A stretch of 45,499 nucleotides of DNA from Candidatus Humicultor tengchongensis. Lineage in GTDB: Bacteria; Sysuimicrobiota; Sysuimicrobiia; Sysuimicrobiales; Humicultoraceae. Made by a program: the position numbers and the translations under genes. The stretch lies in NCBI GenBank assembly GCA_031459715.1, contig JAVKIA010000019.1, forward strand, positions 1-45,499, in the 5' to 3' direction. The notes under the pieces were generated by a model. That model searched no databases. It was not told the DNA's origin and saw only the letters and a program-made list of their open reading frames with translations. Shown in pieces: positions 8,612 through 41,499 of the stretch (positions are counted from its first letter, which is position 1; each line of letters begins with the position of its first letter).

Positions 8612-9574
8612 TCAGCCCGGGATGCCTCCCCGCGATCCGCTCCGGTAGGCCAGCACCGCCCGGGCCTGCTCGTCGGCGTGGTAACTCGAGCGCACCAGCG
8701 GGCCGGACTCGACGTACTTGAAGCCGCGGCGCAGCCCTTCGTCACGGAGGCTGCGGAACTCCTCCGGCGTGTAGTAGCGGTCGATGGGATGGTACCCGGG
8801 CCCTGGCCGCAGGTACTGCCCCAGCGTCAGGATGTCAACGTCGACGGCCCGCAGGTCTTCCATGGTCTGCAGCAGTTCCTCCCAGGTCTCCCCCATCCCC
8901 AGGATGATCCCGCTCTTGGTGAAGCAGGTGTACCCCCACTCCTTCACCCGACGCAGCAGCTCCAGGGAGCGGTCGTAGCTGCCGCCGTGGCGCACCACCT
9001 TGAACACCCGGCGGACGCTCTCGATGTTGTGGCCGAGAATCTCCGGGTCGGCCTCCAGCACGGTGCGCAGCGCGGCGGCGTCTCCCTTGAAGTCGGGGAC
9101 CAGCACCTCCACGGTGCAGCCGGGGAAGATTTCCCGGATACTGCGGATGGTCCGGGCGTAGATGCCGGCGCCGCCGTCTCTCAGGTCGTCGCGGTTCACC
9201 GAGGTGATCACGGCGTGACGCAGCCCCATGGCCGCCACGGCGCGGGCGACCCGCTCCGGCTCCTGCACGTCCAGCTCGGTGGGCAGCCCGTGGGCGATGG
9301 CGCAGTAGGCGCAGTTGCGGGTGCACAGGTTGCCCAGGATGAGGAAGGTGGCGGTGCGGCGCCCCCAGCACTCGCCGATGTTGGGGCAGCGCGCCTCCTC
9401 GCAGACGGTGTGCAGGGTCTGCGTGCGCATGATGCCCACCAGGTCCTGGTAGGCGCCACCCCCAGGCAGCCGGACTTTGAGCCATGCAGGCCGGCGCGCC
9501 CCATCAAGCGGAGGGACGGAAGGCGAGACCTGGGGTGGCGGGAGGGAACGAGTTTCACCGGGAGCGAGGGCCAT
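8612..9574 (-). CDS. lipA: Lipoyl synthase
   Basis: 320 aa. [13 protein letters not shown] and CTRNCAYC radical-SAM/auxiliary cluster motifs. Sits 2 nt downstream of bkdB. Confidence 0.9.
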
Positions 9575-9576
9575 GG

Positions 9577-10905
9577 TTACAGGTCCGTGACCGCGGCCTG
9601 GCCGCCCCGGAAGCCTTCCAGCCGGGCCTTGATGTGGTTTAGGAACCGGTCGGCCACCGCGCCGTCAAAGACACGGTGGTCGAAGGAGAGCCCCAGGTGC
9701 ATGATGGAGCGGATGGCGATGGCCTCACCCCAGGGTGCCGCTTCGCCCCGCCCGTCGCCGCGACCCCCGACCACCACCGGCCGCCTGACAATGGCATCGG
9801 TGGCCAGGATGGCCGCCTGGCCGGGGAGGATGATGGGCATCGACCAGATCGAGCCGAAGATGCCGGGATTGGTGATGGTGAACGTCCCGCCCTCCACGTC
9901 CTCCAGGGTCAGCTTACCCTCGCGGGCCCTGCGGCTGAGGTCCTCCAGATCCCGGGCTATGCCCAGGAGCGACTTCTGATCGGCGTCCTTGATCACCGGA
10001 ACGATCAGGCCGTCCTCCAGGGCCACCCCGACGCCGATATTTACCCGGCCCCGCAGCAGGACGCCCTCCTCGGTCCAGGTGGAGTTGACCACGGGGAAGG
10101 CGCGCAGCGCCTCCGCCGCGGCCCGCACGAAGAAGGCGGTGTAGGTGAGGGCCACCCCGTGACGCTGCCGCCACTCGTCCTTGTACTTCTCCCGCCAGTC
10201 CACGACCCCGGTCATATCCACCTCGATCACGCCGTAGGCATGCGGGATCTCCCGCTTGGACTGGGCCATGCGCTGGGCAATGGTGCGTCGCAGCGGGGAG
10301 AGCTTGAGCAGCCGGTCGCCGGGAGCAGCCGCGGGGGTGGGGACGGCCGGCGCGGGGGCCACCGGCGGCCCTGCGGGTGAAGGGGCGGCAGCCGGCGGCG
10401 TGGCGGGGGAGACCACCGCCGGCGCAGTCTCCCGCTGGGCCACGTACCTGAGCAGGTCCTCCTTGGTGACCCGCCCGCCCGCCCCGCTGCCGCGGAGCTG
10501 CTCCACCTCGGCCAGGGGAATCCCGTGTTCTTCCGCCAGGCGGCGGACCAGCGGGGAGAGCCTGGCACCGGCCTGCCGCGGGGGCGGCGCACCCGCCGGG
10601 GGCGCAGAGGGGACGGGCCCCGCAGCCCCCGCCCCCACGGGTTCCCCCGCCGCCACGGGCTCGGCCGCTTCGACTTCCATCAGGGCGATGGGCGTTCCCA
10701 CCTCCCTGGTCTCACCCTCAGGCACCAGGATCTCTTTCAGGATGCCGCCATAGGGCGAGGGCATCTCCACGTTGACCTTGTCCGTGATGATCTCGACCAG
10801 AGGCTCAAACCGCTCCACCCGGTCGCCGGGCTGCTTCAGCCAGCGGCCGATGGTCCCCTCGAATGTGGACTCGCCTAGCTGGGGCAGCTTTATCTCAACG
10901 GGCAT
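9577..10905 (-). CDS. bkdB: Dihydrolipoamide acyltransferase E2 of a 2-oxoacid dehydrogenase complex (branched-chain type by operon context)
   Basis: 442 aa. N-terminal lipoyl domain ([14 protein letters not shown]), Ala/Pro linkers, a peripheral-subunit binding domain, and a catalytic domain with DHRVFDGA. Confidence 0.85.
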
Positions 10906-10957
10906 GCCGGGCCCCCGGGGTCATGGTCCCATTCTACACAACTCGGTCCAGGAAGGC

Positions 10958-11941
10958 TCAGTAGGCCGCCAGATGGCGCATGGCTGCGGCGATGCGGGCC
11001 TGGTCGATGTAGAACCACTCCTCCAGCGGCTTGCTGTAGGGAATGCCGGGCACGTCGGGCCCGGCCAGGCGCATAACCGGAGCGTCCAGGCTGTCGAAAG
11101 CCTCCTCGGCGATCAGGGCGGCGATCTCCGCGCCGTAGCCGCAGAACCGGTTGTCCTCGTAAACGATCAGCGCGCGGCTGGTCTTGGCCACGGAGGCCAG
11201 GATGGTGTTCTTGTCCAGCGGCTTGAGCGAGCGCACGTCCACCACCTCGGCGCTGATGCCCTCTGCCGCCACCACCTCCGCCGCCCGCAGCGCCTCGTGC
11301 AGCATCCAGCCGAAGGCGAAGACGGACAGGACGCTGCCCTCACGGCGCACCGCCGCGGGGCCGAGGGGCACCGTGTAGTCCCCCTCGGGGACCTCCCCCC
11401 GGACAATCCGGTAGGCGCGCTTGTGCTCCAGGAAAAGTACGGGGTCGGGGTCACGCACCGCGCTCTTGAGCATGCCCTTGGCGTCGTAGGGGGTAGACGG
11501 CGCCACCACCTTCAGCCCCGGGACGTGGGCGTAGAAGGACTCGACGGACTGGGAGTGATAGAGGGCCGTGCCGTGGGAGCCACCGTAGGGAGCACGGAAG
11601 ACCACCGGGCAGCCGTAGCTGCCGTTGGAACGGTAGCGCATCCGCGCCGCTTCGCTGACGATCTGGTTGAAGGCCGGGTGGATGAAGTCGGCAAACTGGA
11701 ACTCGGCGATGGGCAGCAGGCCGTTGGCGGCCATGCCGATGGCCACCCCGGCGATGGAGGACTCGGCCAGGGGGCTGTCGATGACCCGATCTTCTCCGAA
11801 CTTCTCGTACAACCCCATGGTCACACCGAAGACGCCGCCTTTACGGCCTACATCCTCCCCCAGGACAACCACGCGCTCGTCTCGAGCCATCTCCTCGTGG
11901 TGGGCCTGGTTCAGGGCATCGACGTAGCGCAGCTCAGGCAT
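10958..11941 (-). CDS. bkdAB: 2-oxoacid dehydrogenase E1 component beta subunit
   Basis: It is the C-terminal 327 aa of the 470-aa track ORF, starting MPELRYVDALNQAHHEEMARDERVVVLGEDVG. The ATG sits 6 nt after the E1-alpha stop. The upstream 143 aa of the track ORF is Arg/Pro-rich read-through, not coding. Confidence 0.9.
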   Translation of the reverse strand: MPELRYVDALNQAHHEEMARDERVVVLGEDVGRKGGVFGVTMGLYEKFGEDRVIDSPLAESSIAGVAIGMAANGLLPIAEFQFADFIHPAFNQIVSEAARMRYRSNGSYGCPVVFRAPYGGSHGTALYHSQSVESFYAHVPGLKVVAPSTPYDAKGMLKSAVRDPDPVLFLEHKRAYRIVRGEVPEGDYTVPLGPAAVRREGSVLSVFAFGWMLHEALRAAEVVAAEGISAEVVDVRSLKPLDKNTILASVAKTSRALIVYEDNRFCGYGAEIAALIAEEAFDSLDAPVMRLAGPDVPGIPYSKPLEEWFYIDQARIAAAMRHLAAY

Positions 11942-11946
11942 CGCCC

Positions 11947-13050
11947 TCACCCCCCCCACTTGCCGGCGGGAGACAGCCAGGGATGCGGCGGGTGTGGCCC
12001 GGGGATCTGGCCGTCGGGATCGTAGAACGCGGGGTCCCGCTGCGTGGCGAACAGGTGCTGCTCGGCAGTGGCGGGATCGGGGAGCGGCTCGGCCTCGGCG
12101 GCGTCGGTGGCCTCGTCGATCTCCCGCTTGATCCGGGCCATCAGAGCCTGATAGCGCTCTTCGGTGAGCAGGCCGACGCTCTCCAGATAGGCCCGGAAGG
12201 TCAACAGGGGATCGCGCTGGCGAGCAGCCTCGATCTCCTCCCTGGGGCGGTAGCGTTCCTGCTGGTCGTCGCTGGAGTGCGACCCCAGCCGCTGAACGCG
12301 GTACTCGATGAGCGTGGGGCCGTCCCCGCGCCTGGCCCGCTCGTGGGCCTCCTTGGCCACGCGGTAGCACTCCAGCACATCACTGCCGTCGGCCACCACA
12401 CCCGGCATTCCGTACCCGGCAGCACGGGCGGCGATGTTCTCCCCGGCTACCTGCTTGCGTAGCGGGACGGAGATCGCATAGAAGTTGTTCTCCACCACGA
12501 AGATCACCGGCAGCCTGTAGATCCCCGCCCAGTTCAACGATTCGTGCCAGTCGCCCTGGCTGGTACCGCCGTCACCGATGGCCACCATGGTGATCTCGCC
12601 GGTCCTGCGCAGCTTCGCCGCGTAGGCGATGCCCACAGCATGAGGGTACTGGGTGCCCACGGGGCTGCTGGTGGAGAGGATCTTCAGGCGGGGGTGGCTG
12701 TAGTGGCCGGGCATCTGGCGGCCGCCGCTGCTGGGGTCGGTGGCGCGGGCAAACAGCCCCAGCAGCATCTCCCTGGGCGTCATCCCCTTGACCAGGCAGG
12801 CGGCCACCGACCGGTAGAAGGGCACGAACCAGTCACGCTGCCGGTCCATTGCCCACATGGCTCCCACCTGGCAGCCCTCGTGCCCGGGCCCGGAGATGAC
12901 GAACATGGCCTTGCCTGCCCGCTGCAGGACCCACATGCGGTCGTCCAGCGCCCGGGCCAGAGCGATGTAGTAGTACATGTCCAGCACGTCCTGGTCGCTC
13001 AGACCCAGGGCTGCGTGGCGGGCTGCAGTCCTGGTCTCGTGCAACACCAT
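11947..13050 (-). CDS. bkdAA: 2-oxoacid dehydrogenase E1 component alpha subunit (TPP-dependent)
   Basis: 367 aa. Motifs: YYIALARALDDRMWVLQRAGK, TPP-binding GDGGTSQGDWHESLNWAGIYRLPVIFVVENN. Confidence 0.9.
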   Translation of the reverse strand: MVLHETRTAARHAALGLSDQDVLDMYYYIALARALDDRMWVLQRAGKAMFVISGPGHEGCQVGAMWAMDRQRDWFVPFYRSVAACLVKGMTPREMLLGLFARATDPSSGGRQMPGHYSHPRLKILSTSSPVGTQYPHAVGIAYAAKLRRTGEITMVAIGDGGTSQGDWHESLNWAGIYRLPVIFVVENNFYAISVPLRKQVAGENIAARAAGYGMPGVVADGSDVLECYRVAKEAHERARRGDGPTLIEYRVQRLGSHSSDDQQERYRPREEIEAARQRDPLLTFRAYLESVGLLTEERYQALMARIKREIDEATDAAEAEPLPDPATAEQHLFATQRDPAFYDPDGQIPGPHPPHPWLSPAGKWGG

Positions 13051-13063
13051 ACGGCTCCCCCCG

Positions 13064-14461
13064 TCAGATGTGAATGGCCCGGCCCAGCGCGTCCAGGGCC
13101 GCTTCCTTCAGCGCCTCGGCCAGGGTGGGGTGCGAGTGCACGGCGCGCCCCAGCTCATAGACGGTCCCCTCCAGGGATCTGACCGCGACGCCCTCCGCCA
13201 GCAGCTCCGTGACGCCGAACCCGACCATGTGTATGCCCAGAATCTCCCCCACCCGGGCGTCGGCCACCACCTTCACCAGCCCCTCGGTGGCGTCCTCGAT
13301 GGTAGCCTTGGAGTTGGCCTGGAAGGGGAAGCGCCCCACCCTCACCTCGCGGCCGCTCTCCCTGGCCTGCTGCTCGCTCAGCCCCATGGTGGCCACCTGG
13401 GGGATGGAGAACGTCGGCCGGGGGATGGCCTGGTAGTCGATGGACGGAGGCGAGGCTCCGGCGATGGACTCGGCCACAAACACCGCCTCCTCGGAGGCCA
13501 CGTGCGCCAGGCGGAAGGGTCGCCCCAGGACGTCCCCGATGCCGAAGATGGTCGGGGTGGCCGTGCGCAGGTTCGCGTCCACCTGCACCGCCCCCTGCTC
13601 GATCACCACCCCCGCCTCCTCCACAGCCAGCTCCCGATAGACCGGAGCCCGCCCCACCGCCACCAGCAGGTAGTCCGCGGCGATGGTGGTGGTCTGGTCG
13701 CCTTTGCGCAGGGTGATGGCCAACCCGTCGCCGCGGTACTCGACGCGCTCCGCCGTCGACTCCGTGTGCACCTGGATCCCGCGCCGCTCGAAAGACCGCT
13801 GCAGCTGCCGGCCGATCTCCTCGTCCTCCAAAGGCAGCAGCGTCGGCAGCAGCTCCACCAGCGTCACCTCGGCTCCGAAGGCGCGGAAGACGCTGGCCAT
13901 CTCCACCCCTACCGGCCCGGCACCCAGGATGGCGATGGCCCGCGGCACCTCCTTCAGGTCCAGCGCCGCGGTGCTGTCGATGATGCGCCGGTTGTCAATG
14001 GCAATCCCCGGGACGCTTCGTGGCGCGGAACCGGTGGCGATCATGAAGTGCTTCCCCCGCAGCGCGGTCTCCGACCCGTCCGCCAGGGCCACCGCCACCT
14101 CGGTCCTGCTCAGGAAGCGGGCCTCCCCGTGGAAGACGTCGACCCGGTTCTTGCGCAGCAGGTACTGGGTGCCCTTGTAGAGTTTCTCCACCACGCGCCG
14201 CTTCCTGGCGTGCACCGCGGCCAGGTCCACAGCCAGGTCACCGGTGGCGATCCCCAGGTCCCGGCCCCGGCGCAGCTCGTCCAGGACCCCGGCCACGTAG
14301 AGCAGCGCCTTGGTGGGGATGCAGCCGTAGTGCAGGCAGGTGCCGCCCACCTTGTCCCGCTCCACCACCGCCGTGCGCAGTCCAAGCTGCGCGGCGCGGA
14401 TGGCCCCCACGTAGCCGCCCGGTCCTGCGCCGATGACCACCAGGTCATAGGGTTCGGGCAT
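13064..14461 (-). CDS. lpdV: Dihydrolipoyl dehydrogenase E3
   Basis: 465 aa. MPEPYDLVVIGAGPGGYVGAIRAAQLGL...GGTCLHYGCIPTK redox disulfide. GAGGAG SD 5 nt before the ATG. E3 comes first, as in Bacillus bkd operons. Confidence 0.9.
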   Translation of the reverse strand: MPEPYDLVVIGAGPGGYVGAIRAAQLGLRTAVVERDKVGGTCLHYGCIPTKALLYVAGVLDELRRGRDLGIATGDLAVDLAAVHARKRRVVEKLYKGTQYLLRKNRVDVFHGEARFLSRTEVAVALADGSETALRGKHFMIATGSAPRSVPGIAIDNRRIIDSTAALDLKEVPRAIAILGAGPVGVEMASVFRAFGAEVTLVELLPTLLPLEDEEIGRQLQRSFERRGIQVHTESTAERVEYRGDGLAITLRKGDQTTTIAADYLLVAVGRAPVYRELAVEEAGVVIEQGAVQVDANLRTATPTIFGIGDVLGRPFRLAHVASEEAVFVAESIAGASPPSIDYQAIPRPTFSIPQVATMGLSEQQARESGREVRVGRFPFQANSKATIEDATEGLVKVVADARVGEILGIHMVGFGVTELLAEGVAVRSLEGTVYELGRAVHSHPTLAEALKEAALDALGRAIHI

Positions 14462-14563: not shown

Positions 14564-16252
14564 CTACTTCCCCACACGGATGCGGATGATATGGTGACCG
14601 GTCGCCCCCTCCGGCAGCGGGGGCGAGGGCTGCGCCGTCTGCAGGGCCCCGGTGCCGTCGCGCGCCCGCACCCGCACCCGGTACTCCCCCGGTGCCGCCG
14701 GCGTCCACACCACCGCCCACAGCACCCAGGTATACGGCCCCAGCGGCGCCTTGACCTGCGCTGCCAGCCAGGCCCTGCCGTCGTCCGGGGAGACCTCCAC
14801 CGCCCGGATCCTCCGGGCGCCGGCGTAGGCCACCCCGCCCAGGCCCACCTCCTCCCCGGCCTTCGCCCGCAGCGGGGAAGGGATGGTGAACTTGGACATG
14901 GTCTGCACCACCGCCTGGTCGCTCCACCCCGAGCGCTCCCAGAACCCCTGGAAGTCGAAATCGGCCGCCTCGATCCGGGTGATCCACTTGGGATTCTTCA
15001 TCCCAAACAACCCCGGCACCAGCAGCCGCAGCGGGAAGCCGTGCCTGGGCGGCAGGGGCTCGCCGTTCATCTCGTAGACGAGCAGGGTGTCGGGATGCAG
15101 CGCTTCGGCCACCGGCAGCGATTCCGTGTAGCCGTCGGCGCAACGGAAGACCAGCTTGATGGCAGTGGGCGGCAGGCCTCCGGCCCTGGCCACCACGTCA
15201 CGCAGCCGGACTCCGCGCCAGTAGGCGTTGCCGATCAGGTCGCCGCCGACCTCGTTGCTGATGCACTCCAGGGTGTGCGGCCGGCGCACCGCAGGCATGG
15301 CCTTGAGCTCGTCCAGGCCCATCACCAGCGGGCGGTCCGGCCGCACTGCGACCTCCAGCCGCCAGCGATCGGCCCGCAGCACAGGGTCGAGTCCCGGCGG
15401 GTTCTTGCTCACCACATAGAACTGGTCGGTGGGTGTGACCTCCGGTGGCAACCCGCGCACGCGGGTAAAGGGACTCTGAGCGGTGACGGCGGGCCCTCCG
15501 GCCGCGGCGGCCCGCTCCTGCGCGGTGGGGGATATTGCGCCCAAACGTCCGGGCGCGCCGGGAGGTGCTGCGGCGGATGGTCTGAGCGCGGCCAGCCACT
15601 GCCACAGGCTCGCTCCCGTCAGCGTCCCCAGAGCCAGAGCCAGCCAGCGGCCCAGCAGCTCCCGGCGGGTACGGCTGTCCCCGCCGGCGGGGCCAAAACG
15701 GCGGGCGGGGGGCCACAGGACCGCCCCGGTCACCAACAGGGCGAACAGGCCCGCGTAAACGGCCAGCGCGCCCAGAATCCGGGCAGCAACGGAGGTGGGG
15801 TCGGGCTCGAGCACCCCCATGCCCTGCAGCCGGCCGCGCATGTACTCGGCGCCCGGGGTGAAGGTCAACCCCACGAGCGGCACAAATGCGGCGAGAAATG
15901 CGACCAGAAACCTGGTCGCAGCGACCCGGGCCGCGCTGCCGCCGCCTTCCGGTGCGCCGCCGTGGCCTGCAGACGGCTGCCCCCACGGCGCCCGTCCCAG
16001 AACGTATCCCAAAAGCGCCCAGGCGGCCACCATCCCCGCGAGCATCCCCCAGAAGGCCAGCGGCTTGGCCAGGAACTTGAGGCGGACGATGAGGAAGCCG
16101 AAGACCTCCACTGGCAGCAGGCGCAGGGTCCGCTCCCACAGGGCCAGAGCGACCACCGGGAACCCTGCAGTAAAAGTCCCCCGCAGCATCAGCGACACCG
16201 CCAGCACTCCAGCGGTGGCGCCGCCCAGCGCGCCGCGCGCGCCCCTGCTCAT
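14564..16252 (-). CDS. Membrane-anchored sulfite-oxidase-family molybdopterin oxidoreductase: N-terminal polytopic TM domain, internal twin-arginine-like motif, Moco domain, C-terminal dimerisation domain
   Basis: 562 aa. Residues 1-190 are hydrophobic with ~5 TM helices. Residues ~193-215 read SRTRRELLGRWLALALGTLTGAS, which is Tat-signal-like. After that come the SO-family core (HTLECISNEVGG with Moco Cys, GYTESLP, NGEPLPPRHGFPLRLLVPG..GMKNPKWI) and an Ig-like C-terminal domain. It starts 10 nt after the nuoC stop. Confidence 0.75.
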   Translation of the reverse strand: MSRGARGALGGATAGVLAVSLMLRGTFTAGFPVVALALWERTLRLLPVEVFGFLIVRLKFLAKPLAFWGMLAGMVAAWALLGYVLGRAPWGQPSAGHGGAPEGGGSAARVAATRFLVAFLAAFVPLVGLTFTPGAEYMRGRLQGMGVLEPDPTSVAARILGALAVYAGLFALLVTGAVLWPPARRFGPAGGDSRTRRELLGRWLALALGTLTGASLWQWLAALRPSAAAPPGAPGRLGAISPTAQERAAAAGGPAVTAQSPFTRVRGLPPEVTPTDQFYVVSKNPPGLDPVLRADRWRLEVAVRPDRPLVMGLDELKAMPAVRRPHTLECISNEVGGDLIGNAYWRGVRLRDVVARAGGLPPTAIKLVFRCADGYTESLPVAEALHPDTLLVYEMNGEPLPPRHGFPLRLLVPGLFGMKNPKWITRIEAADFDFQGFWERSGWSDQAVVQTMSKFTIPSPLRAKAGEEVGLGGVAYAGARRIRAVEVSPDDGRAWLAAQVKAPLGPYTWVLWAVVWTPAAPGEYRVRVRARDGTGALQTAQPSPPLPEGATGHHIIRIRVGK

Positions 16253-16262
16253 GTGCTGATCC

Positions 16263-16802
16263 CTACGCGCGTTCTCCCAGCCCGAGCCCCTCGATCTCCC
16301 GCTGCCGCTGCGCTGCCAGCGCCCGGAGCCATTCCGGGTCCTCGAAGACGTAATCCTTGCGCAGAGGGTGCCCCACCCAGTCCTCGGTCATCATGATGCG
16401 CCGGAGGTTGGGGTGCCCCTCGAAGGTGATGCCCAGGAGGTCGTAGGCTTCTCGCTCATGCCAGTCTGCGCCCTGCCAGATGCCGGTGACGCTGGGCACC
16501 CGGGGATCGTCGCGCGGCGTACGCACCTTGAGCACTAGCTCGTGCTGGTGGCGGAAGGAGAAGAGGTGGTAGACGACATCGATGCGTTGCTCTTCCGGGT
16601 AGTCCACCCCTGTGACAAACGACAGGTAGTCCATGGCGAATTCCGGATCGGCGGCCACGAAGCGGCAGATCTCCAGTAGCTGGTCCGCAGGCACCCAGGC
16701 CCCGGGGGTGAGGTAGACCGGGGCCTTCGCCTCCTCCCGCCGGGGAAACGGCTCCACCTGGGGGAACCGCCGGCGCAGGCGCTCCACCAGCTCCCAGCTC
16801 AC
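16263..16802 (-). CDS. nuoC: NADH-quinone oxidoreductase subunit C (30 kDa, NuoC/Nqo5 family)
   Basis: It is the C-terminal 179 aa of the 329-aa track ORF. It aligns to Nqo5: YLSFVTGVDY, IDVVYHLFS and PRDDPRVPSVTGIWQGADWHEREAYDLLGITFEGHPNLRRIMMTEDWVGHPLRKDY. The GTG start overlaps the nuoI TGA (GTGA). Confidence 0.85.
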   Translation of the reverse strand: MSWELVERLRRRFPQVEPFPRREEAKAPVYLTPGAWVPADQLLEICRFVAADPEFAMDYLSFVTGVDYPEEQRIDVVYHLFSFRHQHELVLKVRTPRDDPRVPSVTGIWQGADWHEREAYDLLGITFEGHPNLRRIMMTEDWVGHPLRKDYVFEDPEWLRALAAQRQREIEGLGLGERA

Positions 16803-17275
16803 AGCACCCTCCCCCGGATCACGCCGCGGGCGATGGGCTCCTTGGGCGCGGCCCGGTGCAGGTCCTCCAGACTGTAGAGGAGGTTGGCCCGGTTGTAGGT
16901 GCTGGCCTCGTAGTGTGGCACGAAGACGATGGCCTCCGTAGGGCAGACCTCCACGCACAGCCCGCAGTACTGGCACTTGTCCATCTCGATGTCGAAGCGG
17001 GTGAGCACTCGCTCCTTGCCCCGTCCGGTGGCCTCGATGTGGATGCAGCGGCTGGGGCAGACCCGCTCGCACTGGAAGCAGATGATGCACTGGTCGTTGC
17101 CGGTCTCCGGGTCCACCGGCAGGGCCAGCAGCCCGTGCCAGCGCGGAGAGATGTCGTTCTTCTCCAGCGGGTACTTGACGGTGTTCTTGGGGCGGACCAG
17201 GGCAATGAAGGTGAGCCGCAGCCCCTCCGCCAGCGCCTGCGCCCCCTGCCACACCCGTCCCAGGCTTACGGCCAC
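16799..17275 (-). CDS. nuoI: NADH-quinone oxidoreductase subunit I (2x[4Fe-4S] ferredoxin-type)
   Basis: 158 aa. CIICFQCERVCP and CQYCGLCVEVCP, with the typical NuoI N-terminus (VRPKNTVKYPLEK). Confidence 0.9.
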   Translation of the reverse strand: MAVSLGRVWQGAQALAEGLRLTFIALVRPKNTVKYPLEKNDISPRWHGLLALPVDPETGNDQCIICFQCERVCPSRCIHIEATGRGKERVLTRFDIEMDKCQYCGLCVEVCPTEAIVFVPHYEASTYNRANLLYSLEDLHRAAPKEPIARGVIRGRVL

Positions 17276-17340
17276 CAGCTCACCTCCGCCCCGTGGCCCT
17301 GCCCTACCGGCCGCGCCCGCGCCATGGTCCCACCCCGGAA

Positions 17341-18447
17341 TTACCGGTCCACATCCGAAAGCACAATGTCCACGCTGCCCAGGATGGCGATCACGTCGGC
17401 GATCTTCCAGCCGCGCATCATCTCTGACAGCGCATAGAGGTTGTTGAAGGCCGGGGCACGGATCTTCACCCGGTAGGGGTGCTCCTCCCCGTCGCTGACC
17501 AGATAGATACCCAGGTCCCCCCGCGGGGATTCCGTGCGCGTGTAGACCTCGCCCCTGGGCAGGCGCAGGGTGACGGGGATCTTCGGCGCGCGGATCTCGC
17601 CGGGTGGCAGCTTGGCCACCGCCTGCCGGATGATGCGGGTGGACTGCCGCATCTCCTCCACGCGCACCTGGTAGCGGGCGAAACAGTCCCCCTCCTGGCG
17701 CACCGGGATGTCGAAGTCCACCTCCGCGTACTTCTCGTAGGGGAAGGCTTTGCGTACGTCAAAGGCGATCCCGGAGGCCCGGGCTACCGGCCCCGACGCC
17801 CCCAGGTTGACGGCCAGCTCTCGCGGCAGTACCCCCACCCCCCTGGTGCGCACCTCAAAGATGGGATTGGCGGTGAACAGCCCCTCGTACTCTGCAATAC
17901 GCCCGGGGAACTCGTCGCAGAAGGCCAGCGCCTGCTCCACCCAGCCGTCGGGAATGTCGTCGCAGACGCCGCCGGGGCGGAAGTAGACGTGGTGCAGCCG
18001 TCCGCCCGTGACCCGTTCGAAGAGGTCCAGGACCTTCTCCCGCTCCCGGAAGCACCAGAGGAACATGGTGGTGGCCCCCAGGTCAGCCCCCCAGGTGCCC
18101 AGCCAGACCAGGTGGCTGGAGATGCGCTGCAGCTCCAGGAGGATGACCCGCAGCCACTGCGCCCGCTCCGGCACGCTGATCCCACCCAGGGTCTCCACCG
18201 CCCGCAGCAGCGCTTCCTCGTTGGCCAGCGCCGCCAGGTAATCCATCCCCCGGTCGGCCAGGGAGACGGACTGCAGGTAGGTGCGGTACTCCATCATCTT
18301 CTCGACGGAGGAGTGGAGGTAGCCGATGTCCGGGGCCACCTCCACAATGTTCTCGCCTTCCAGGGTGACGATCATCCGCAGCACCCCGTGCGTGCTGGGG
18401 TGCTGGGGCCCCAGGTTGAGGATGAGCTCTTCGGTGCGCAGCGCCAT
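17341..18447 (-). CDS. nuoD: NADH-quinone oxidoreductase subunit D (49 kDa)
   Basis: 368 aa. LNLGPQHPSTHGVLR at the N-terminus and DIVLSDVDR at the C-terminus. It has no N-terminal RxCGxC or C-terminal DPCxxC NiFe ligands, so it is not a hydrogenase large subunit. Confidence 0.9.
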   Translation of the reverse strand: MALRTEELILNLGPQHPSTHGVLRMIVTLEGENIVEVAPDIGYLHSSVEKMMEYRTYLQSVSLADRGMDYLAALANEEALLRAVETLGGISVPERAQWLRVILLELQRISSHLVWLGTWGADLGATTMFLWCFREREKVLDLFERVTGGRLHHVYFRPGGVCDDIPDGWVEQALAFCDEFPGRIAEYEGLFTANPIFEVRTRGVGVLPRELAVNLGASGPVARASGIAFDVRKAFPYEKYAEVDFDIPVRQEGDCFARYQVRVEEMRQSTRIIRQAVAKLPPGEIRAPKIPVTLRLPRGEVYTRTESPRGDLGIYLVSDGEEHPYRVKIRAPAFNNLYALSEMMRGWKIADVIAILGSVDIVLSDVDR

Positions 18448-18451
18448 GAGC

Positions 18452-19042
18452 TCAGGAGGCCGCCACGCCGGCGCGGCGCCGCAGGAAGGGCTCCTTCTTG
18501 ATCTTCTCCTGGAGCTTCAGGATGCCCTCGTAGAGGGCCTCTGGCCGCGGCGGGCATCCCGGCACGTAGACATCCACCGGGATGATGGTGTCGATGCCCT
18601 TGAGGATGGAATAGTTGTCATAGAAGAAGGGTCCGCCGCAGGTGGCGCACGACCCCATGGAGATCACGTACTTGGGCTCAGGAATCTGCTCGTAGAGGCG
18701 GCGGACGATGGGAGCCATCTTGATGGTGCAGCGGCCGGAGACGATGATCAGGTCCGCCTGGCGCGGGGTGCCGCGGAAGAAGGTGCCGATGCGATCCATG
18801 TCGAACCGGCCGGCGGCCGCCGCCATCATCTCGATGGCGCAGCAGGCCAGGCCGAACCCCAGGGCCCAGAGGCTGCTGGCCCGCCCCCAGTTCAGGACCT
18901 GTTCCACTGAGGAGAGGATGACGCTGCCCCCGGGGAGGACGTCGATCATCTCGACCAGCCTGTCGATGGGCGTGGCGGTGCTGACGCGCAATTGACCGTT
19001 CCCCTGCCCGCCGGGCAGGGACCTCTCTGGCAGGTCGGGCAT
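18452..19042 (-). CDS. nuoB: NADH-quinone oxidoreductase subunit B (20 kDa, N2 cluster)
   Basis: The track ORF begins with TTG at 19075. An internal ATG (MPDLPER...) has a GGGGAGGT SD 6 nt upstream. Motifs: [23 protein letters not shown]. Confidence 0.9.
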
Positions 19043-19350: not shown

Positions 19351-19701
19351 CTATGGGCGGACGGGCTCCTGCGTCGGATCCATCCCGGCCGCCTGCAGCA
19401 CTGCGGCCAGGAACGCCGCCTCAGGCAGCGCTCCCTCAAACTGCGTGGTTTCGTTGATGACCACCTTGGGCACGCCGTAGACGCTGTACCGCTGCGCCAG
19501 GTCCGGGTACTCGGAAGCGTCGATAACATCGGCCCGCACCCGCGGCGACTCCAGCGCCATGGCGTGGGCCAGCCGCGCGGCCCGCGGGCAGTAGGGGCAG
19601 GTCGGGGTGACGAAGACCTGGATGTGCACGTCCCGGGCGAGACCGGCCAGCGCCTGCCGGGTCTGCGGGCTCAGGCCGCTATCCCTCCGGGAGACCGCCA
19701 C
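19351..19701 (-). CDS. Thioredoxin-fold / glutaredoxin-like small redox protein
   Basis: 116 aa. [11 protein letters not shown] active-site motif and [13 protein letters not shown] start. Confidence 0.7.
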
Positions 19702-30524: not shown

Positions 30525-33500
30525 TCAAGCCCTGAATCCCGAAAGTTCGGAATCTGGCGAACCGGCCGCCTCCGCAGCATCCTGTCCGAGGAGGCCGCGG
30601 GGGAGGACCTTTCGGAGGCGACCGGCTGAAAAAGGCCAGGCCTGCAGCAGCTCTGCCGCCCGCCGGCTCCCGGTGTGCGCCAGATGCTCGGCGAGGAGGT
30701 CGCGCAGCTCGTGCAGATCTTTCGCTTCGACCTGCACCACCGACACCGTCTCCTGGTTGCACCGGCCGGCGAACAGGCCGTCCTCGTCCAGGACGTAGGC
30801 CCGGCCCCCGGTCATCCCCGCACCGAAGTTGTAGCCGGCGCGGCCCAGCACCACCACTACCCCTCCGGTCATGTACTCGCACCCGTGGTCGCCCACCCCT
30901 TCCACTACGGCCACCGCGCCGCTGTTGCGCACGGCGAAGCGCTCGCCGGCGCGCCCCGCGGCGAAGAACCGGCCGCCGGTGGCGCCGTAGAGGACCGTGT
31001 TGCCCGCGATCACGTTCTCGTGGGAGGCGCCGGTGAAACCACGCGGCGGGCGGATGGCGATCGTTCCCCCGCTCATCCCCTTCCCCGCATAGTCGTTGAC
31101 CTCGCCCTCCAGCTCCAGGACCATCCCCGGGACGCAGAACGCGCCGAAGCTCTGACCCGCGCTCCCGGTAAACCGGAGCACGACGCGTCCCTCCCCCAGT
31201 CCTCCCTCCCCGTACCGCCTGGCGATGGCTCCGGCCAGGCGTCCGCCCACCGTCCGGTCCATGTTGCTGATGGAGTAGGTCAGGTGCACTGGGATGCCGC
31301 GCTCCAGGGCGGGCCAGGCGTCCATCCAGACGCGGTCGTCCAGGGTGGGGCCCTCGGGCCGCTTGTTGCGCGCCTGCATGCAGCGCCGCGCCGCCTCCGG
31401 CACCCCGGCGGACCCGGCCAGGAGCGCGGAAAGGCCGATACGGCGTCCCAGGACGGACTCGTCCACCGGGGATAGCAGCTCGCTGCGCCCGATGACCTCC
31501 TCCAGGGTGCGGGCGCCCAGCGCCGCCAGGTGACGCCGCACCTCCTCGGCCACCGCAAGCAGGTATGCCTCCACCCGCTCGGGCCGTCCGCTGAACCGGC
31601 CTCGCAGGTCCTCCCGCTGCGTGGCGATGCCGGTGGGGCAGGTGTTGAGGTGGCAGGCGCGGGCCATCACGCAGCCCAGGGCGACCAGCGCCGCGGTGCC
31701 GAAGCCGAACTCGTCTGCGCCCAGCAGGGCAGCCACGACCACGTCCCGCCCCGTTTTCAGCCCCCCGTCCACGCGCAGGCGGACCCGCCCGCGCAGCCCG
31801 CTGGCCACCAGCACCTGCTGGGTCTCCGCCAACCCCAGCTCCCAGGGCAGGCCCACGTGCTTGATGGACTCCAGGGGCGAGGCCCCCGTGCCGCCGTCGT
31901 GTCCGCTGATCTGGATGGTGTCGGCAAAGGCCTTGGCCACCCCCGCGGCGATGGTGCCCACACCGGCTTCCGCCACCAGCTTCACAGCCACGCGGGCCAG
32001 AGGATGGACTCGCTTGAGGTCGTAGATGAGCTGGGCCAGGTCCTCGATGCTGTAGATGTCGTGGTGGGGCGGCGGGGAGATCAGCGTGATCCCCGGCTGC
32101 GCGCGGCGGATGGCGGCGATCTCGGCGCTGACCTTGTGGCCGGGGAGCTGGCCTCCCTCGCCCGGCTTGCTCCCCTGCGCCATCTTGATCTCCAGCTCGT
32201 CGGCCGATACCAGGTAGGCCGCAGTCACCCCGAATCGTGCCGAGGCCACCTGCTTGATCCGGCTGTTGGCGTTGGTGCCGTCGGGCCGGGGGAGGTAGCG
32301 GGAGGGATCCTCGCCCCCCTCGCCGCTGTTGGAGCGGGCCCCCAGGCGGTTGGCGGCGATGGCCAGGGCCTCATGTGCCTCCCGGGAGAGCGCCCCGTGG
32401 GACATCGCTGAGAGGACGAAGCGGCGCACGATGGCGTCGGCAGGCTCCACCTCCTCCAGAGGGACGGGCTCCCGCCGGACAAAGGCCAGCAGGTCGCGCA
32501 GGGCGGTGGGGGGGCGGGAGGCGACCAGGTCGGCGAAGGCGGTGTAGGCCTGGCCGCTGCCCGACTGGGCGGCCTGGTGCAGCCGCTTCACTACATAAGG
32601 GTTGAAGGCGTGGTATTCACCGTCGCGGCGGAAGCGGACCAGCCCCGGGTCCGCCAGCTCTCCATCTCCGGCGAAGGCGCGTGCGTGGCGGGCGGCCGCC
32701 TGGGCGGCCAATTCGTCCAGGGAGACGCCGCCCAGGTGGGCGGGCGTGCCGGGGAAGTAGCGCTCCACCACCTGAGGGTCCAGCCCCACGACCTCGAAGA
32801 CCTGCCCGCCCTGGTACCCGGCGAGGGTGCTGATTCCCATCTTGCTGGCCACCTTGAGCAACCCCTGCTCCAGAGCGCTGAGGTACTGCCGGACCGAGGG
32901 TCGGCGGCCGTTGGCGGAGGGCAGCGCGGCCACGGTCTCCAGGGCCAGGTAGGGGCAGACCGCCTCAACTCCGTAGCCCAGCAGGCAGGCTACCTGGTGG
33001 ACGGTACGCGCTTCACCGCTCTCGACCAGCAGACCCACCCGCATGCGCAGCCCCACCCGGATGAGGTGATGGTGAACGGCGCTGGCGGCCAGGAGCATGG
33101 GGATGGGGATGCGTTTTGGGTCGGCGGCGCGGTCGCTGAGGATGAGCAGACCTGCCCCTTCTGAAACTGCGGATTCCGCCTCGCCGGCCAGACGGACAAG
33201 CGCAGCCTCCAGCGAGTCGCGGTCCGCAGGCCACGTGGCGTCCAGAACCACCGCCGGCCAGGGAGCGTGGGCGCGCACCCAGCCAAGCTGGTCGGGGGTG
33301 AGCACGGGCGAGGGGAAGGCCAGCAGCGCGGCGTGTTCGGGGCCATCCTCCAGCCAGTTGCGCCGCGGGCCCACCCGGACGGCAAGCGACATCACCAGCC
33401 GCTCCCGCAGGGGGTCGATCGGCGGATTGGTCACCTGGGCGAACCGCTGGCGGAAGTAATCGTAGAGGAGCCGGGGCCGTTGAGACAGGGCAGCGGGCGG

Positions 33501-35108: not shown

Positions 35109-35228
35109 CCACCGGACTGTGCACTCCGGCGAGTGCGAACCTCTCCCTCGGGCTTCTCTCCCGATGGTAGACCGGCCGACCCCACCCGATCCGCTCAGGA
35201 ACCAGACCGGGGAACTGTCGGTATTTCG

Positions 35229-35290
35229 CTGCCGGCCTGCGCCGCTTGAACCAGGCCTTCCCCTGGTGGAGGAAGCGGAACCCTAGGCGC
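35229..35290. repeat. Copy B of the same conserved bipartite motif
   Basis: CCTGCGCCGCTTGaaCCAG...GCGGAACCCTAGGCGC, lying ~120-180 nt upstream of the gltB start on the minus strand. Confidence 0.5.
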
Positions 35291-35564
35291 CTCTCGCGCC
35301 AAGCGCGAGGAACTTGGCGCCATGGTTGCAGCCGGTCGGGATCCTGTCAAGCGGTTCGTTCGCGTAACTCGAACATTCTGGCAAGAACCCGGGGAGCGCA
35401 TGTGGCTCCCCTGACGGCTTCCGCTCCCTGCAGTGCCTGAGATCCGAGCCTGGGCCTGCGAGCGATCCCCGGGCCGGGCCGTGGACTCCCACGCTCGGTG
35501 AGGCCCTGAAAGCTCTCACTTCCGGCCGATCCTCATTCCTGGTAAGGTCAAAAGATGATCGCCC

Positions 35565-35867
35565 ATGGGGACCGAGACCACCGGCGTCAGGCTTGCCCGG
35601 CTGGAAGGCGCCTACGAGCAGATTGACAGGCGCCTGGGCACCATCGAGGGGCGCCTGGCCGTGCTGGAAGGCAAGGTGGACGCCGGGTTCGCCCGACTCG
35701 ACGCCAAGATCGGCGGGAAGATCGACGCGCTCGCCTCCGAGCTGCGGGAGGCGATCGTGCGTACCAACGCCCGGATGGATGCCCTGGGCGCCCGTCTGAA
35801 CACCGCGATGTTTGGCATCGTGGCCGCCGTCCTGGTTCCCATCCTCCTGCGCCTTTTCTGGCCCTGA
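35565..35867 (+). CDS. Small coiled-coil protein with a C-terminal transmembrane helix (XhlA/haemolysin-XhlA-like)
   Basis: 100 aa. Heptad-like LARLEGAYEQIDRRLGTIEGRLAVLEGKVDAGFARLDAKIGGKIDALASELREAI followed by MFGIVAAVLVPILLRLFW. G/C-rich codon third positions are consistent with genuine coding. No holin or lysin lies nearby. Confidence 0.5.
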   Translation: MGTETTGVRLARLEGAYEQIDRRLGTIEGRLAVLEGKVDAGFARLDAKIGGKIDALASELREAIVRTNARMDALGARLNTAMFGIVAAVLVPILLRLFWP

Positions 35868-35876
35868 CAGCCGCTG

Positions 35877-37169: not shown

Positions 37170-37302
37170 CAGGACCTCCTCCACCGCTCTGTCTCCACTC
37201 TCCGTACGTTGCCCGCCCGGACGGCAGAAGTCAACCGGATCCCTCTTGACAACCGCCGCGGAGGTGCTACTTTTTTGGGATAAATAGAGTGCAGTTGGCC
37301 TG

Positions 37303-37351
37303 AGGCCGCGACGCCTCTCAAGCGAAGGGGTCGCGGCCTTTCGCTTTTCGG
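37303..37351 (+). terminator. Stem-loop plus U-tract in the amtB leader (candidate attenuator/terminator)
   Basis: A perfect 10-bp stem, AGGCCGCGAC / GUCGCGGCCU, encloses an 18-nt loop. UUCGCUUUUCGG follows. It sits ~100 nt upstream of the amtB ATG, in a divergent intergenic region. Confidence 0.45.
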
Positions 37352-37450
37352 TGTACCGGCGGATCAGCCACGTCCCGGCGGGCTCGGGGCAGAGAGAGGC
37401 AGCGTCCGCGGGGGCACGGGGAGCGGAGAGAGGCACAGGAGGGACGACAG

Positions 37451-40092: not shown

Positions 40093-40095
40093 GCC

Positions 40096-41496: not shown

Positions 41497-41499
41497 GGA

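Follow-up and report, generated by a model that had tools for sequence, protein, structure and literature searches.

[quoted passage not shown] The molybdenum cofactor (Moco) is incorporated in the cytoplasm, and Tat is the export route of the periplasmic enzymes known in the sulfite oxidase (SO) family, namely SorA, SoxC, and MsrP. For Sco3746 of Streptomyces coelicolor, Tat dependence and a topology with five transmembrane domains (TMDs) have been shown experimentally, and the protein has been described as a fused version of the MsrPQ pair (Tooke et al. 2017, eLife 6:e26577, PMC5449189).

We analyzed a gene in a window of 45,499 nucleotides (the whole stretch of DNA under study) and confirmed that the fusion it encodes is genuine and conserved: a multi-helix membrane domain is joined to an SO-fold molybdenum (Mo) enzyme, with an internal twin-arginine signal between them.

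A conserved fusion of a membrane domain and an SO-fold molybdoenzyme

The open reading frame (14564..16252, minus strand) encodes 562 aa, and its ATG is the first start codon past the upstream in-frame stop. From the N-terminus, the protein consists of a helical membrane domain (aa 1-180), the twin-arginine (RR) motif, a weakly hydrophobic helix (aa 203-223), a linker, and an SO-fold domain (aa 259-562); its AlphaFold2 model has a mean pLDDT of 84.5 and a pTM of 0.81. The features, with the evidence for each in brackets, are as follows.

14564..16252, minus strand: whole gene, long form, encoding a membrane-anchored SO-fold molybdoenzyme of 562 aa (ORF, domains, homologues, AlphaFold2)
16181..16246, minus strand: helix H1, aa 3-24, Gly/Ala-rich, probable first transmembrane (TM) helix, with R3 and R6 at its N-terminus (AlphaFold2 helices, hydropathy)
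16064..16180, minus strand: conserved trans-side platform, aa 25-63, made up of loop 25-32, short helix H2 (33-45), and the first part of long helix H3 (46-63) (insertion energy, conservation)
15992..16063, minus strand: H3b, aa 64-87, transmembrane helix (AlphaFold2; median crude energy -0.65)
15941..15991, minus strand: cis-side (cytoplasmic) loop L2, aa 88-104, variable and indel-rich (alignments; conservation 0.14, 71% gaps)
15821..15940, minus strand: H4, aa 105-144, TM part about 112-132, with a conserved trans-side extension 133-146 (P133, A134, L138, R141, A144, G146) (AlphaFold2, conservation)
15716..15799, minus strand: H5, aa 152-179, transmembrane helix (AlphaFold2; median crude energy -0.9)
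15647..15676, minus strand: internal twin-arginine motif S193-R-T-R196-R197-E-L-L-G-R202 (sequence, column counts, alignment to short-form Tat signals)
15584..15646, minus strand: H6, aa 203-223, Tat h-region and predicted Tat-dependent final TM (crude energy, pLDDT)
15479..15583, minus strand: linker, aa 224-258, disordered in the model (AlphaFold2, alignment)
14918..15478, minus strand: Moco-binding catalytic domain, aa 259-445 (Pfam)
14567..14917, minus strand: SO-type dimerisation (Ig-like) domain, aa 446-562 (Pfam)

Homology searching returned 1254 matches at E<=1e-5, of which the best 120 are mostly 500-565 aa long, most of them at 95-100% query coverage. Relatives are encoded at 393 genome loci, and the architecture is kept from 80% to approximately 40% identity in two phyla, CSP1-3/Sysuimicrobiota and Chloroflexota. 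A sequence-only reading of this DNA had left two explanations side by side, a mis-called start or frameshift fusion and a membrane protein fused to a Tat-exported SO enzyme. The former, and likewise an assembly chimera, can be rejected, since more than 100 full-length homologues share the architecture and begin at the same aligned Met, and no genuine stand-alone gene for the N-terminal domain was found. The identical protein is present on 3 independent contigs, and no ATG, GTG, or TTG occurs in frame between V178 and the RR motif. The ~190 N-terminal residues were not found as a separate upstream gene either: a phmmer search of 1.8 billion representatives with aa 1-225 as the query yielded 21 matches, all from the same family, and the short matches inspected among them are truncated or frameshifted fragments. 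A profile search with the N-terminal domain, the sensitivity of which is limited by a word-index pre-filter, returned 12 proteins that are apparently fragments or partial sequences.

The fusion explanation is borne out by the long-form homologues and, most decisively, by short-form paralogues and homologues that lack the membrane domain and start with an N-terminal Tat-type leader aligned to the same RR motif. One example (L036, 6169-7230) starts MGPDPKFVEEMTRRQLLRR..., and further short forms can be found in L015, L026, L029, L041, L023-25, and L039, some of them directly beside a long form. It is therefore well supported that the protein arose by placement of a membrane domain of ~190 aa before a Tat-exported enzyme, the unfused paralogues of which persist.

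In the catalytic half, Pfam Oxidored_molyb (PF00174) matches aa 290-438 (E 6e-46) and Mo-co_dimer (PF03404) matches aa 464-538 with 24 bits against a cutoff of 22.7. Residue C330 (nt 15263-15265), which lies in an invariant TLECISN, aligns with the Mo-ligand Cys104 of SorA. The Moco domain, the Mo-ligand Cys, and the PF03404 dimerisation domain that mark the SUOX fold family are thus all present, and the earlier assignment to the SO family stands, given the two-domain SO fold and the conserved Mo-ligand Cys.

The residues that bind sulfite in SorA (identities checked against the R55M entry 2ca3) are replaced here: R55 corresponds to V281, H57 to N284, and Y236 to W443, while the position of R109 falls within a 7-residue segment that is deleted. 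We take 2ca4 and 2c9x to be the SorA H57A and Y236F entries. K283, N284, and W443, which stand in place of the SorA residues, are invariant in the family. A canonical sulfite dehydrogenase or oxidase (SorA, SorT, SUOX) was rejected on account of the missing sulfite-binding residues and of scores below the NCBIfam equivalog cutoffs (SorA, 122 bits vs 600; SoxC, 114 vs 420; SorT, 100 vs 570). The active site predicted from the alignment is different from that of the canonical sulfite dehydrogenase, and because the sulfite-binding residues of SorA are not conserved, we have left the substrate unassigned. JGI labels homologues as 'YedYZ catalytic subunit'. Two papers on CSP1-3 contain no mention of the present gene, Tat, or msrP. 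An Rfam search of the window yielded neither a Moco riboswitch nor any other Rfam family.

Topology and export of the molybdenum domain

No other feature in the N-terminal half of the protein is as conserved as the RR motif, which fits the Tat consensus position by position. Among 114 CSP1-3 homologues, T/S195 is kept in 108, R196 in 112, R197 in 113, L200 in 103, and R202 in 112, and in an alignment of 29 sequences, Chloroflexota among them, the RR pair does not vary. The motif is directly preceded by a variable, Arg-rich loop (aa 180-192), in which the top residue of each of columns 190-192 is found in fewer than 34 of the 114 sequences; at position 193, G occurs in 78. The pattern [ST]RR.[FLVIM]L appears in 1.2% of shuffles of the 562-aa protein. 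The string quoted in the sequence-only reading, SRTRRELLGRWLALALGTLTGASLWQW, is indeed present, and it spans aa 193-219 rather than the 193-215 given there. In the AlphaFold2 model, the helix begins at R196 and its hydrophobic core comprises residues 203-223, so that the RR pair is located at the helix N-terminus and membrane interface, outside the TM core. The claim of an internal Tat-like motif behind a polytopic domain is upheld by this placement and by the near-invariance of the pair, neither of which points to coincidence.

AlphaFold2 and hydropathy together suggest four TM helices (H1, H3b, H4, and H5) before a 16-aa loop (180-195), with H1 being Gly/Ala-rich and marginal in the window protein. 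The next helix, H6, is the least hydrophobic of the membrane helices (+3.5, compared with -0.9 to +1.8 for the other TMs, on a crude, position-independent Hessa-scale sum that is distinct from the dGpred server) and has a pLDDT of 66-83 vs 94-98 for the other helices. In the homologues, columns 218, 225, and 247, at or after H6, are mostly basic. With a crude insertion energy of +8.4 for its best 19-mer, the platform is too polar for a transmembrane segment; it is conserved at the level of the catalytic domain (0.69-0.81), with P47, F51, K59, F60, and A62 invariant in the 114-sequence alignment and G25, P32, L38, and W39 kept in at least 90%. Over the membrane domain as a whole, conservation is 0.64-0.81 on the side of the Mo domain and 0.14-0.32 in the cytoplasmic loops, which are indel-rich; most of L2 is an 18-aa insert rich in Gly, Ala, and Pro (aa 91-108) that is limited to the window protein and its closest relatives. 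From this pattern we infer that the conserved residues of the membrane domain sit on the outer face, on the same side as the Mo domain.

Weighing these lines of evidence, we consider it likely that the protein is a polytopic one assembled jointly by Sec and Tat, with an extracytoplasmic Mo domain. The topology is derived from AlphaFold2 helices, the crude position-independent Hessa-scale sum, and charge counts. H1, H3b, H4, and H5 would be inserted co-translationally by Sec/YidC, after which the Arg-rich loop with T-R-R-E-L-L-x-R would stay cytoplasmic, while helix 203-223 would be skipped by Sec owing to its low hydrophobicity and the basic residues on its flanks. The C-terminal SO-fold domain would then fold and gain its molybdenum cofactor in the cytoplasm, and Tat would recognize the internal twin-arginine signal and move the folded domain across the membrane, leaving helix 203-223 as the fifth transmembrane segment. 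The extracytoplasmic, probably dimeric enzyme would be seated on the outward platform formed by aa 25-63 and 133-146, a contact suggested by helix parity and conservation. The membrane domain may serve to hold the Mo domain in place at the membrane, and possibly to link it to quinone or another partner.

The features that accompany Sec-to-Tat hand-over are present here, namely an RR motif just before the last TM, a preceding loop of ~16 aa, a last TM that is the least hydrophobic, and basic residues after it. Such features govern the hand-over, for which a preceding loop of at least 8 aa is needed (Tooke et al. 2017, PMC5449189). The protein also has the globular, cofactor-binding C-terminal domain that dual-inserted Sec/Tat proteins require before export, in the form of its Moco domain. 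On the side of the RR motif, ~45 residues include 10.0 K or R, compared with 7.8 among the ~72 residues of the opposite side; this positive-inside argument is weakened by the approximately five conserved basic residues of the outer platform. Tat genes are absent from the window and from the tables of the published paper.

The conserved A-x-A-Q that follows the RR helix leaves room for proteolytic cleavage. In this rather improbable alternative, export by Sec and Tat would be the same and the RR helix would be an internal, cleavable signal peptide cut by signal peptidase at A-x-A|Q, giving a soluble or loosely bound Mo enzyme and a separate five-helix membrane protein, with the fusion serving co-expression and co-localisation only. 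The linker does end in a possible signal-peptidase site, A250-x-A258-Q259, situated a few residues past the helix and well conserved (A250 is A in 88 and V in 22 of the 114 homologues; A258 is kept in 106 and Q259 in 101), basic residues occur in the c-region as in classical Tat signals, and the short forms share the A-x-A-Q, where cleavage is plausible. However, A-x-A-Q-S-L-F passes without a break into the conserved beginning of the Mo domain and may have a structural role, and two linker inserts of 21 and 6 aa (226-246 and 251-256), present in at most 2 of the 114 homologues, shift the site in the window protein off the membrane surface where signal peptidase works. The outward platform is strongly conserved, which suggests that it stays associated with the Mo domain, and reporters on TMD5 of Sco3746 required an engineered cleavage site (PMC5449189).

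A bolder form of the anchored, extracytoplasmic reading, which we put forward tentatively and with low expectation, is that the haem-free five-helix domain is a new module that holds the exported Mo domain on the platform and links it directly to the quinone pool. Equally speculative is the assignment of W39, E/D40, R41, R44, F51, R57, K59, K63, W68, and R141 as the platform residues of such a quinone module. If true, electrons would be exchanged between quinol/quinone and Mo without a haem or Fe-S relay.

Another explanation would make the membrane domain a degenerate MsrQ/YedZ-type (ferric-reductase-like) anchor that has lost its haem ligands, in a diverged member of the Sco3746 family. The two share a common plan of about four Sec-type helices, a long first outer loop, an RR motif, a last TM, and an SO-fold domain. 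Conserved TMD His residues that could serve as haem ligands and a PF01794 match are both absent from the membrane domain, Pfam has no match in aa 1-260 of the 562-aa protein, and comparison of the fold with PDB structures gave no match; we regard this explanation as very unlikely. The observation in the sequence-only reading that the N-terminal domain has a single His proved correct: H97 is the only one in the first 260 aa, lies within the variable insert, and is not conserved, and the homologue alignment holds no conserved His or Cys in the membrane domain. Because of this single, non-conserved His, the domain is not an MsrQ-type dihaem anchor.

The adjacent nuo genes

Four co-oriented genes lie upstream of the SO gene.

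16263..18949, minus strand: nuoB (18452-18949), nuoD (17341-18447), nuoI (16799-17275), and nuoC (16263-16802) (Pfam and NCBIfam above cutoffs, gene calls)

The ATG of the SO gene is 9 nt beyond the nuoC stop codon, a single promoter-like site (19105-19076) is found upstream of nuoB, and the minus strand shows no terminator-like site before the SO gene; nuoB-D-I-C and the SO gene are probably part of the same transcript. Of 41 loci for which 6 kb or more of upstream sequence is available, 27 have nuoB-D-I-C upstream of an SO gene.

Both this spacing and this recurrence would suit an extremely unlikely alternative, in which the Mo domain is cytoplasmic and works with the co-transcribed NuoB/D/I/C, the membrane domain provides the anchor and quinone site in place of NuoH/NuoA, and the RR motif is a relic or has another role. 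The weak hydrophobicity of helix 203-223 also speaks for it, since the Mo domain would be cytoplasmic if this marginal helix failed to span the membrane. Against it, the RR motif and the Tat-like tripartite signal are strongly selected and are carried N-terminally by the unfused paralogues. Neither in sequence nor in fold does the membrane domain resemble NuoH or NuoA, in agreement with what had been noted from the sequence, and because its cytoplasmic loops are its least conserved parts, it offers no conserved docking surface for NuoBDIC.

The adjacency itself is limited to the CSP1-3 (Sysuimicrobiota) lineage: no nuo genes occur within 8 kb of the Chloroflexota and Tepidifontimicrobium homologues, and at approximately 12 CSP1-3 loci, two-component-system and DM13 genes, joined at some of these loci by extra SO paralogues, lie between nuoC and the SO gene. 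Neighbours at the Chloroflexota loci are unrelated (LysRS, GH57, amidase, ABC permease, NMT1, 2-hydroxyacid dehydrogenase, DUF309, and TPR/C25), with one related exception, MoeA in L067. NuoD retains QHPSTHGVLR and MDY, which we take to be quinone-site motifs by comparison with the roles of residues in T. thermophilus Nqo4. A published gene table for Sysuimicrobiota lists nuoA-N, including E, F, G, and H, with nuoD present as 1 in every column and nuoC in all but one; with this full set, nuoB-D-I-C looks like the Q-module of an ordinary complex I, and appears to have been split off from an otherwise complete complex. The link between NuoBDIC and the SO gene looks like lineage synteny rather than a dedicated partnership, and no description of a cluster of this kind turned up in a literature search for nuoB/C/D/I and sulfite oxidase. 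In view of the lineage-limited synteny, the interposed genes, the variable cytoplasmic loops, and the published nuo set, a dedicated NuoBDIC-SO complex was judged unlikely, and physical docking of NuoB/D/I/C on the membrane domain is nearly excluded. Most likely, the Mo domain faces the side opposite to the cytoplasmic NuoBDIC. Should the tentative quinone link hold, co-expression with complex I Q-module genes in CSP1-3 would follow from action on the same quinone pool.

Significance and relation to known systems

The family is widespread in CSP1-3/Sysuimicrobiota and Chloroflexota, two little-studied phyla, and its fused and unfused states coexist, sometimes side by side. Because both states are preserved, it offers a natural system for tracing the conversion of an N-terminal Tat signal into an internal one. 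Haem or Fe-S ligands for an electron-transfer cofactor were not identified in the protein, and neither a conserved partner gene nor a cytochrome c partner gene was found near the SO gene. This raises the question of how an extracellular, Mo-only enzyme exchanges electrons when neither the protein nor its neighbours supply haem, Fe-S, or a cytochrome partner. For annotation, our analysis indicates that the family should be labelled neither sulfite oxidase nor MsrP, and that the adjacent nuo genes do not constitute a novel mini complex I.

Among described proteins, the Sco3746 family shares the polytopic N-terminal domain, the RR motif immediately ahead of the last TM, the weak hydrophobicity of that TM and its trailing basic residues, and a C-terminal SO-fold MoCo domain on the outside. 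The two differ in that the TMDs of Sco3746 have conserved His and are predicted to bind two haems b (MsrQ-like), whereas the domain described here has no conserved His or Cys and no Pfam or PDB match. As judged from the published description of Sco3746, the catalytic domain of the window protein, which includes a dimerisation domain, is nearer to SorA/SoxC. SorA, SorT, and SoxC, together with chicken and plant sulfite oxidase, differ in turn, as SorA-type enzymes are soluble and the window protein is membrane-anchored. The E. coli MsrPQ (YedYZ) system likewise ties an extracytoplasmic SO-fold Mo enzyme functionally to an integral membrane protein. In the actinobacterial three-TMD Rieske proteins (Sco2149, M. 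tuberculosis QcrA), Sec also inserts the first helices and Tat the last helix and the folded cofactor domain (PMC3471235, PMC5449189), although these proteins carry a [2Fe-2S] domain, have a different helix count, and are members of the bc1 complex. Set beside these systems, the membrane domain of the present family is an anchor different from those above, cofactor-free, and strongly conserved, that appears to follow the same export logic.

Architecture of the SO gene and its homologues

14564-16252 (-): SO gene, 562 aa, membrane-anchored molybdoenzyme of the sulfite-oxidase (SO) fold
aa 290-438 of the product: Oxidored_molyb (Pfam, E 6e-46)
aa 464-538 of the product: Mo-co_dimer (Pfam)

The ATG of the SO gene is the first start codon after an in-frame upstream stop, and the nuoC stop lies 9 nt before it. 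Residues 1-260 of the protein had no Pfam match. In NCBIfam, similarity to SorA, SoxC and SorT was sub-threshold and that to MsrP much weaker. Alignment with SorA pairs the Mo ligand C104 with C330, but the remaining active-site residues are not carried over: R55, H57 and Y236 correspond to V281, N284 and W443, and R109 falls in a segment deleted from the SO protein. The substituting residues are invariant across the family; the protein has the SO fold but, on this alignment, is no canonical sulfite dehydrogenase.

The sequence-only reading offered two explanations for a twin-arginine (RR) motif lying behind a membrane domain, a gene fusion or a mis-called start. Our search of 5.8 billion proteins returned 1254 matches, the best 120 of which are mostly 500-565 aa long and ~48% to 100% identical, most with 95-100% query coverage; alignments of 32 and 114 of the best matches show a common N-terminal Met region and architecture. 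An identical protein was found on three contigs, and the nearest genomes are CSP1-3/Candidatus Sysuimicrobiota. Relatives are encoded at 393 loci in a genome scan, mainly in CSP1-3/Sysuimicrobiota/ANGP1 MAGs and Chloroflexota. The Chloroflexota long forms (those with the membrane domain) can be aligned across the entire N-terminal domain, and only G11, F51, R196 and R197 are invariant in a 29-sequence alignment that includes them. This conservation across alignments and lineages rules out that the start was mis-called or that a frameshift joined two genes. A separate upstream gene for the N-terminal ~190 aa, proposed as the mark of such an artefact, was not found among the homologues, the short matches inspected being truncated or frameshifted fragments. 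The gene-fusion reading is upheld by the retention of the long architecture and by the existence of unfused paralogues with Tat signals.

The Tat-like string reported earlier is present, although it spans aa 193-219 rather than ~193-215, with R196-R197 as the twin arginines. Among 114 homologues, its columns hold T/S195 in 108, R196 in 112, R197 in 113, E/Q/D198 in 100, a hydrophobic residue at 199, L200 in 103 and R202 in 112, which fits the Tat pattern S/T-R-R-x-F-L-K. At loop positions 190-192 the top residue occurs in fewer than 34 of the 114, and G193 in 78. The motif arises in 1.2% of shuffles of the protein.

The decisive result came from short forms, several catalytic-domain paralogues or homologues (60-70% identical) without the membrane domain. 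A comparison of orthologs with and without this domain had been suggested; family members of both kinds exist, and the unfused ones open with a Tat-type leader, in which a brief n-region precedes the shared TRR motif and is followed, after the motif, by a Gly/Ala-rich h-region, then basic residues, then A-x-A-Q.

L036, 6169-7230: short form, beginning MGPDPKFVEEMTRRQLLRRTALLAGGAVAGPTIARLFRAAGGGTLVYAQ...
L015, L026, L029, L041, L023-25, L039: other loci with short forms

Short and long forms adjoin in L036, L015, L016, L026, L029, L041 and L046, so the family holds both an unfused, N-terminally Tat-targeted enzyme and a fused version, with their signals in register. By this comparison, the RR motif of the SO protein is evidently a Tat signal turned internal. 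Cleavage after the RR helix at the conserved A-x-A-Q is possible.

Topology and the membrane domain

AlphaFold2 modelled the protein with confidence, at a pLDDT of 84.5 and a pTM of 0.81 for the full length (pLDDT 89.8 for the N-domain alone), with helices at 3-24, 33-45, 48-87, 105-144, 152-179 and 196-223 and a disordered linker at aa 224-257. By a crude Hessa-scale 19-mer sum, residues 64-87, 105-132 and 152-179 score well as membrane-spanning segments, the first helix (H1) is marginal, aa 30-64 are unable to span the membrane (+8.4), and the RR helix has the lowest hydrophobicity (+3.5). If H3b, H4, H5 and H6 (the RR helix) all span, the Mo domain and the RR loop would lie on opposite sides, the former sharing its side with aa 25-63 and 133-157 regardless of H1. 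The RR side carries 10.0 K+R per ~45 residues versus 7.8 per ~72 on the other, a twofold difference in density. From this bias and the Tat evidence, together with the AlphaFold2 helices and the crude hydropathy, we infer that the RR loop is cytoplasmic and the Mo domain outside, opposite the cytoplasmic NuoBDIC module, a relation that topology had been expected to settle.

Conservation of the membrane domain is strikingly one-sided. Outward elements score 0.69 (aa 25-32), 0.78 (33-45), 0.81 (46-63) and 0.64 (133-146), against 0.80 for the catalytic domain, whereas the cytoplasmic loops are indel-laden and score 0.14 and 0.32, with the RR motif (0.76) as the exception on that side. This pattern suggests that the membrane domain acts at the outer face jointly with the Mo domain. 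As previously noted, the N-terminal domain has one His (H97 is the sole His within the first 260 residues). Neither His nor Cys reaches 30% of sequences in any column from aa 1 to 225, so a haem or Fe-S site is very unlikely and the domain is no MsrQ/Sco3746-type anchor, in agreement with the earlier rejection of an MsrQ-type dihaem anchor.

Gly/Ala/Pro-rich inserts occur in the cytoplasmic loop L2 (15929-15982, aa 91-108), otherwise seen in the closest relatives only, and after the RR helix (15482-15577, aa 226-257). The linker inserts 226-246 and 251-256 are shared by no more than 2 of the 114 homologues and shift the A-x-A-Q farther from the membrane.

Genomic neighbourhood

8612-14461 (-): lpdA, 2-oxoacid dehydrogenase E1 alpha, E1 beta and E2, lipoyl synthase, directly 3' of the SO gene
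16263-18949 (-): complex I Q-module standing alone, in the unusual order nuoB-nuoD-nuoI-nuoC
19351-19701 (-): 116-aa thioredoxin/glutaredoxin-like protein with a CPYC motif, upstream of nuoB
30525-35108 (-): glutamate synthase large subunit
37451-38893 (+): ammonium transporter
40096-41496 (+): SPFH/flotillin-like protein
41500-42975 (+): glutamine synthetase

The four nuo genes lie upstream of the SO gene, with one promoter-like site 5' of nuoB and no terminator-like site on the minus strand from nuoB to the SO gene. No Rfam family reached its gathering score in the window (1-45499), and no Moco riboswitch was found near the molybdoenzyme gene. The thioredoxin/glutaredoxin-like gene is not conserved at the same position in the related locus L003, and the nitrogen-assimilation neighbourhood (30525-42975) is unrelated to the SO gene.

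The nuo cluster was found at 27 of the 41 related loci whose upstream sequence extends for 6 kb or more, and is absent from Chloroflexota and Tepidifontimicrobium-type loci. The downstream lpdA and branched-chain 2-oxoacid dehydrogenase genes equal it in synteny with the SO gene; since this block is syntenic throughout CSP1-3, gene order in the region is shown to be kept by descent, irrespective of function. All four Nuo proteins exceed curated complex I thresholds, and nuoA, nuoH, nuoJ-N and nuoE-G are absent from all 45 kb of the window. The whole series nuoA to nuoN, E, F, G and H included, is listed in a published gene table for Sysuimicrobiota, where nuoD is scored 1 in all columns and nuoC in all but one. 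With all 14 in that table, the genes for complex I seem to be spread over split operons, and the simplest reading of the cluster is a split-off Q-module of ordinary complex I. Direct electron exchange between the SO protein and NuoBDIC is implausible, given an outside Mo domain and no transmembrane redox wire; any link would run via the quinone pool.

Related loci vary between nuoC and the SO genes. About 12 CSP1-3 loci have two-component genes there, for a response regulator of the OmpR type and a HAMP histidine kinase, some also extra SO paralogues, and a membrane-anchored DM13 protein ('electron transfer DM13', PF10517) is inserted in L013, L014, L026 and L036. These insertions suggest that the SO genes are regulated separately and may have a DM13 partner; the window has none of the three genes.

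L013 3060-5342, L014 5211-7452, L036 3751-6154, L026 5269-7690, L010 6120-7897: insertions between nuoC and the SO genes
L010 7962-8558; also L011, L015, L016, L017, L030, L038, L046: 198-aa SO-fold protein (PF00174, E 1e-40)
L013 5398-5874, L019 4766-5287: ~160-aa conserved protein directly 5' of the long-form SO gene
L067 6802-8034: moeA (molybdopterin molybdenumtransferase), 3' of a Chloroflexota long-form SO gene

The 198-aa protein, without signal peptide or dimerisation domain, is encoded past nuoC and ahead of the exported SO genes in several genomes. In some loci its gene follows nuoC directly, whereas in L010 and L011 the two-component genes come first. Such loci have up to three different consecutive SO-family genes; the window has the long form only. 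The ~160-aa protein is hydrophobic over a segment near its N-terminus and carries the motif HLHHV(L/I)NCIEGKDGK(N/D)Y...GMAGGHALPYVEIAQS; its L013 copy had no Pfam match. The moeA of L067 is the only functionally related SO-gene neighbour found outside CSP1-3.

Comparison with Sco3746

The architecture and proposed biogenesis of the SO protein match those of the Sco3746 family of Streptomyces haem-MoCo proteins, for which a need for both Sec and Tat has been shown by experiment (PMC5449189). In Sco3746 and actinobacterial Rieske proteins, Sec release and hand-over to Tat are governed by basic residues after the helix and by the preceding loop (Tooke et al., PMC5449189); the SO protein likewise has basic residues past its RR helix, at alignment columns 218, 225 and 247, and, in the predicted topology, a loop of 16 aa before it. 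Unlike the Sco3746 family, its membrane domain is haem-free and unclassified, its catalytic part is SorA-like and two-domain with a diverged active site, and fused and unfused forms coexist. The architecture alone would not surprise Tat and molybdoenzyme specialists, but an anchor without haem and the adjoining fused and unfused forms should be useful to them. The SO protein is a variation on the known Sco3746-type architecture, new in its membrane domain, in its catalytic part and in the survival of both states of the enzyme.
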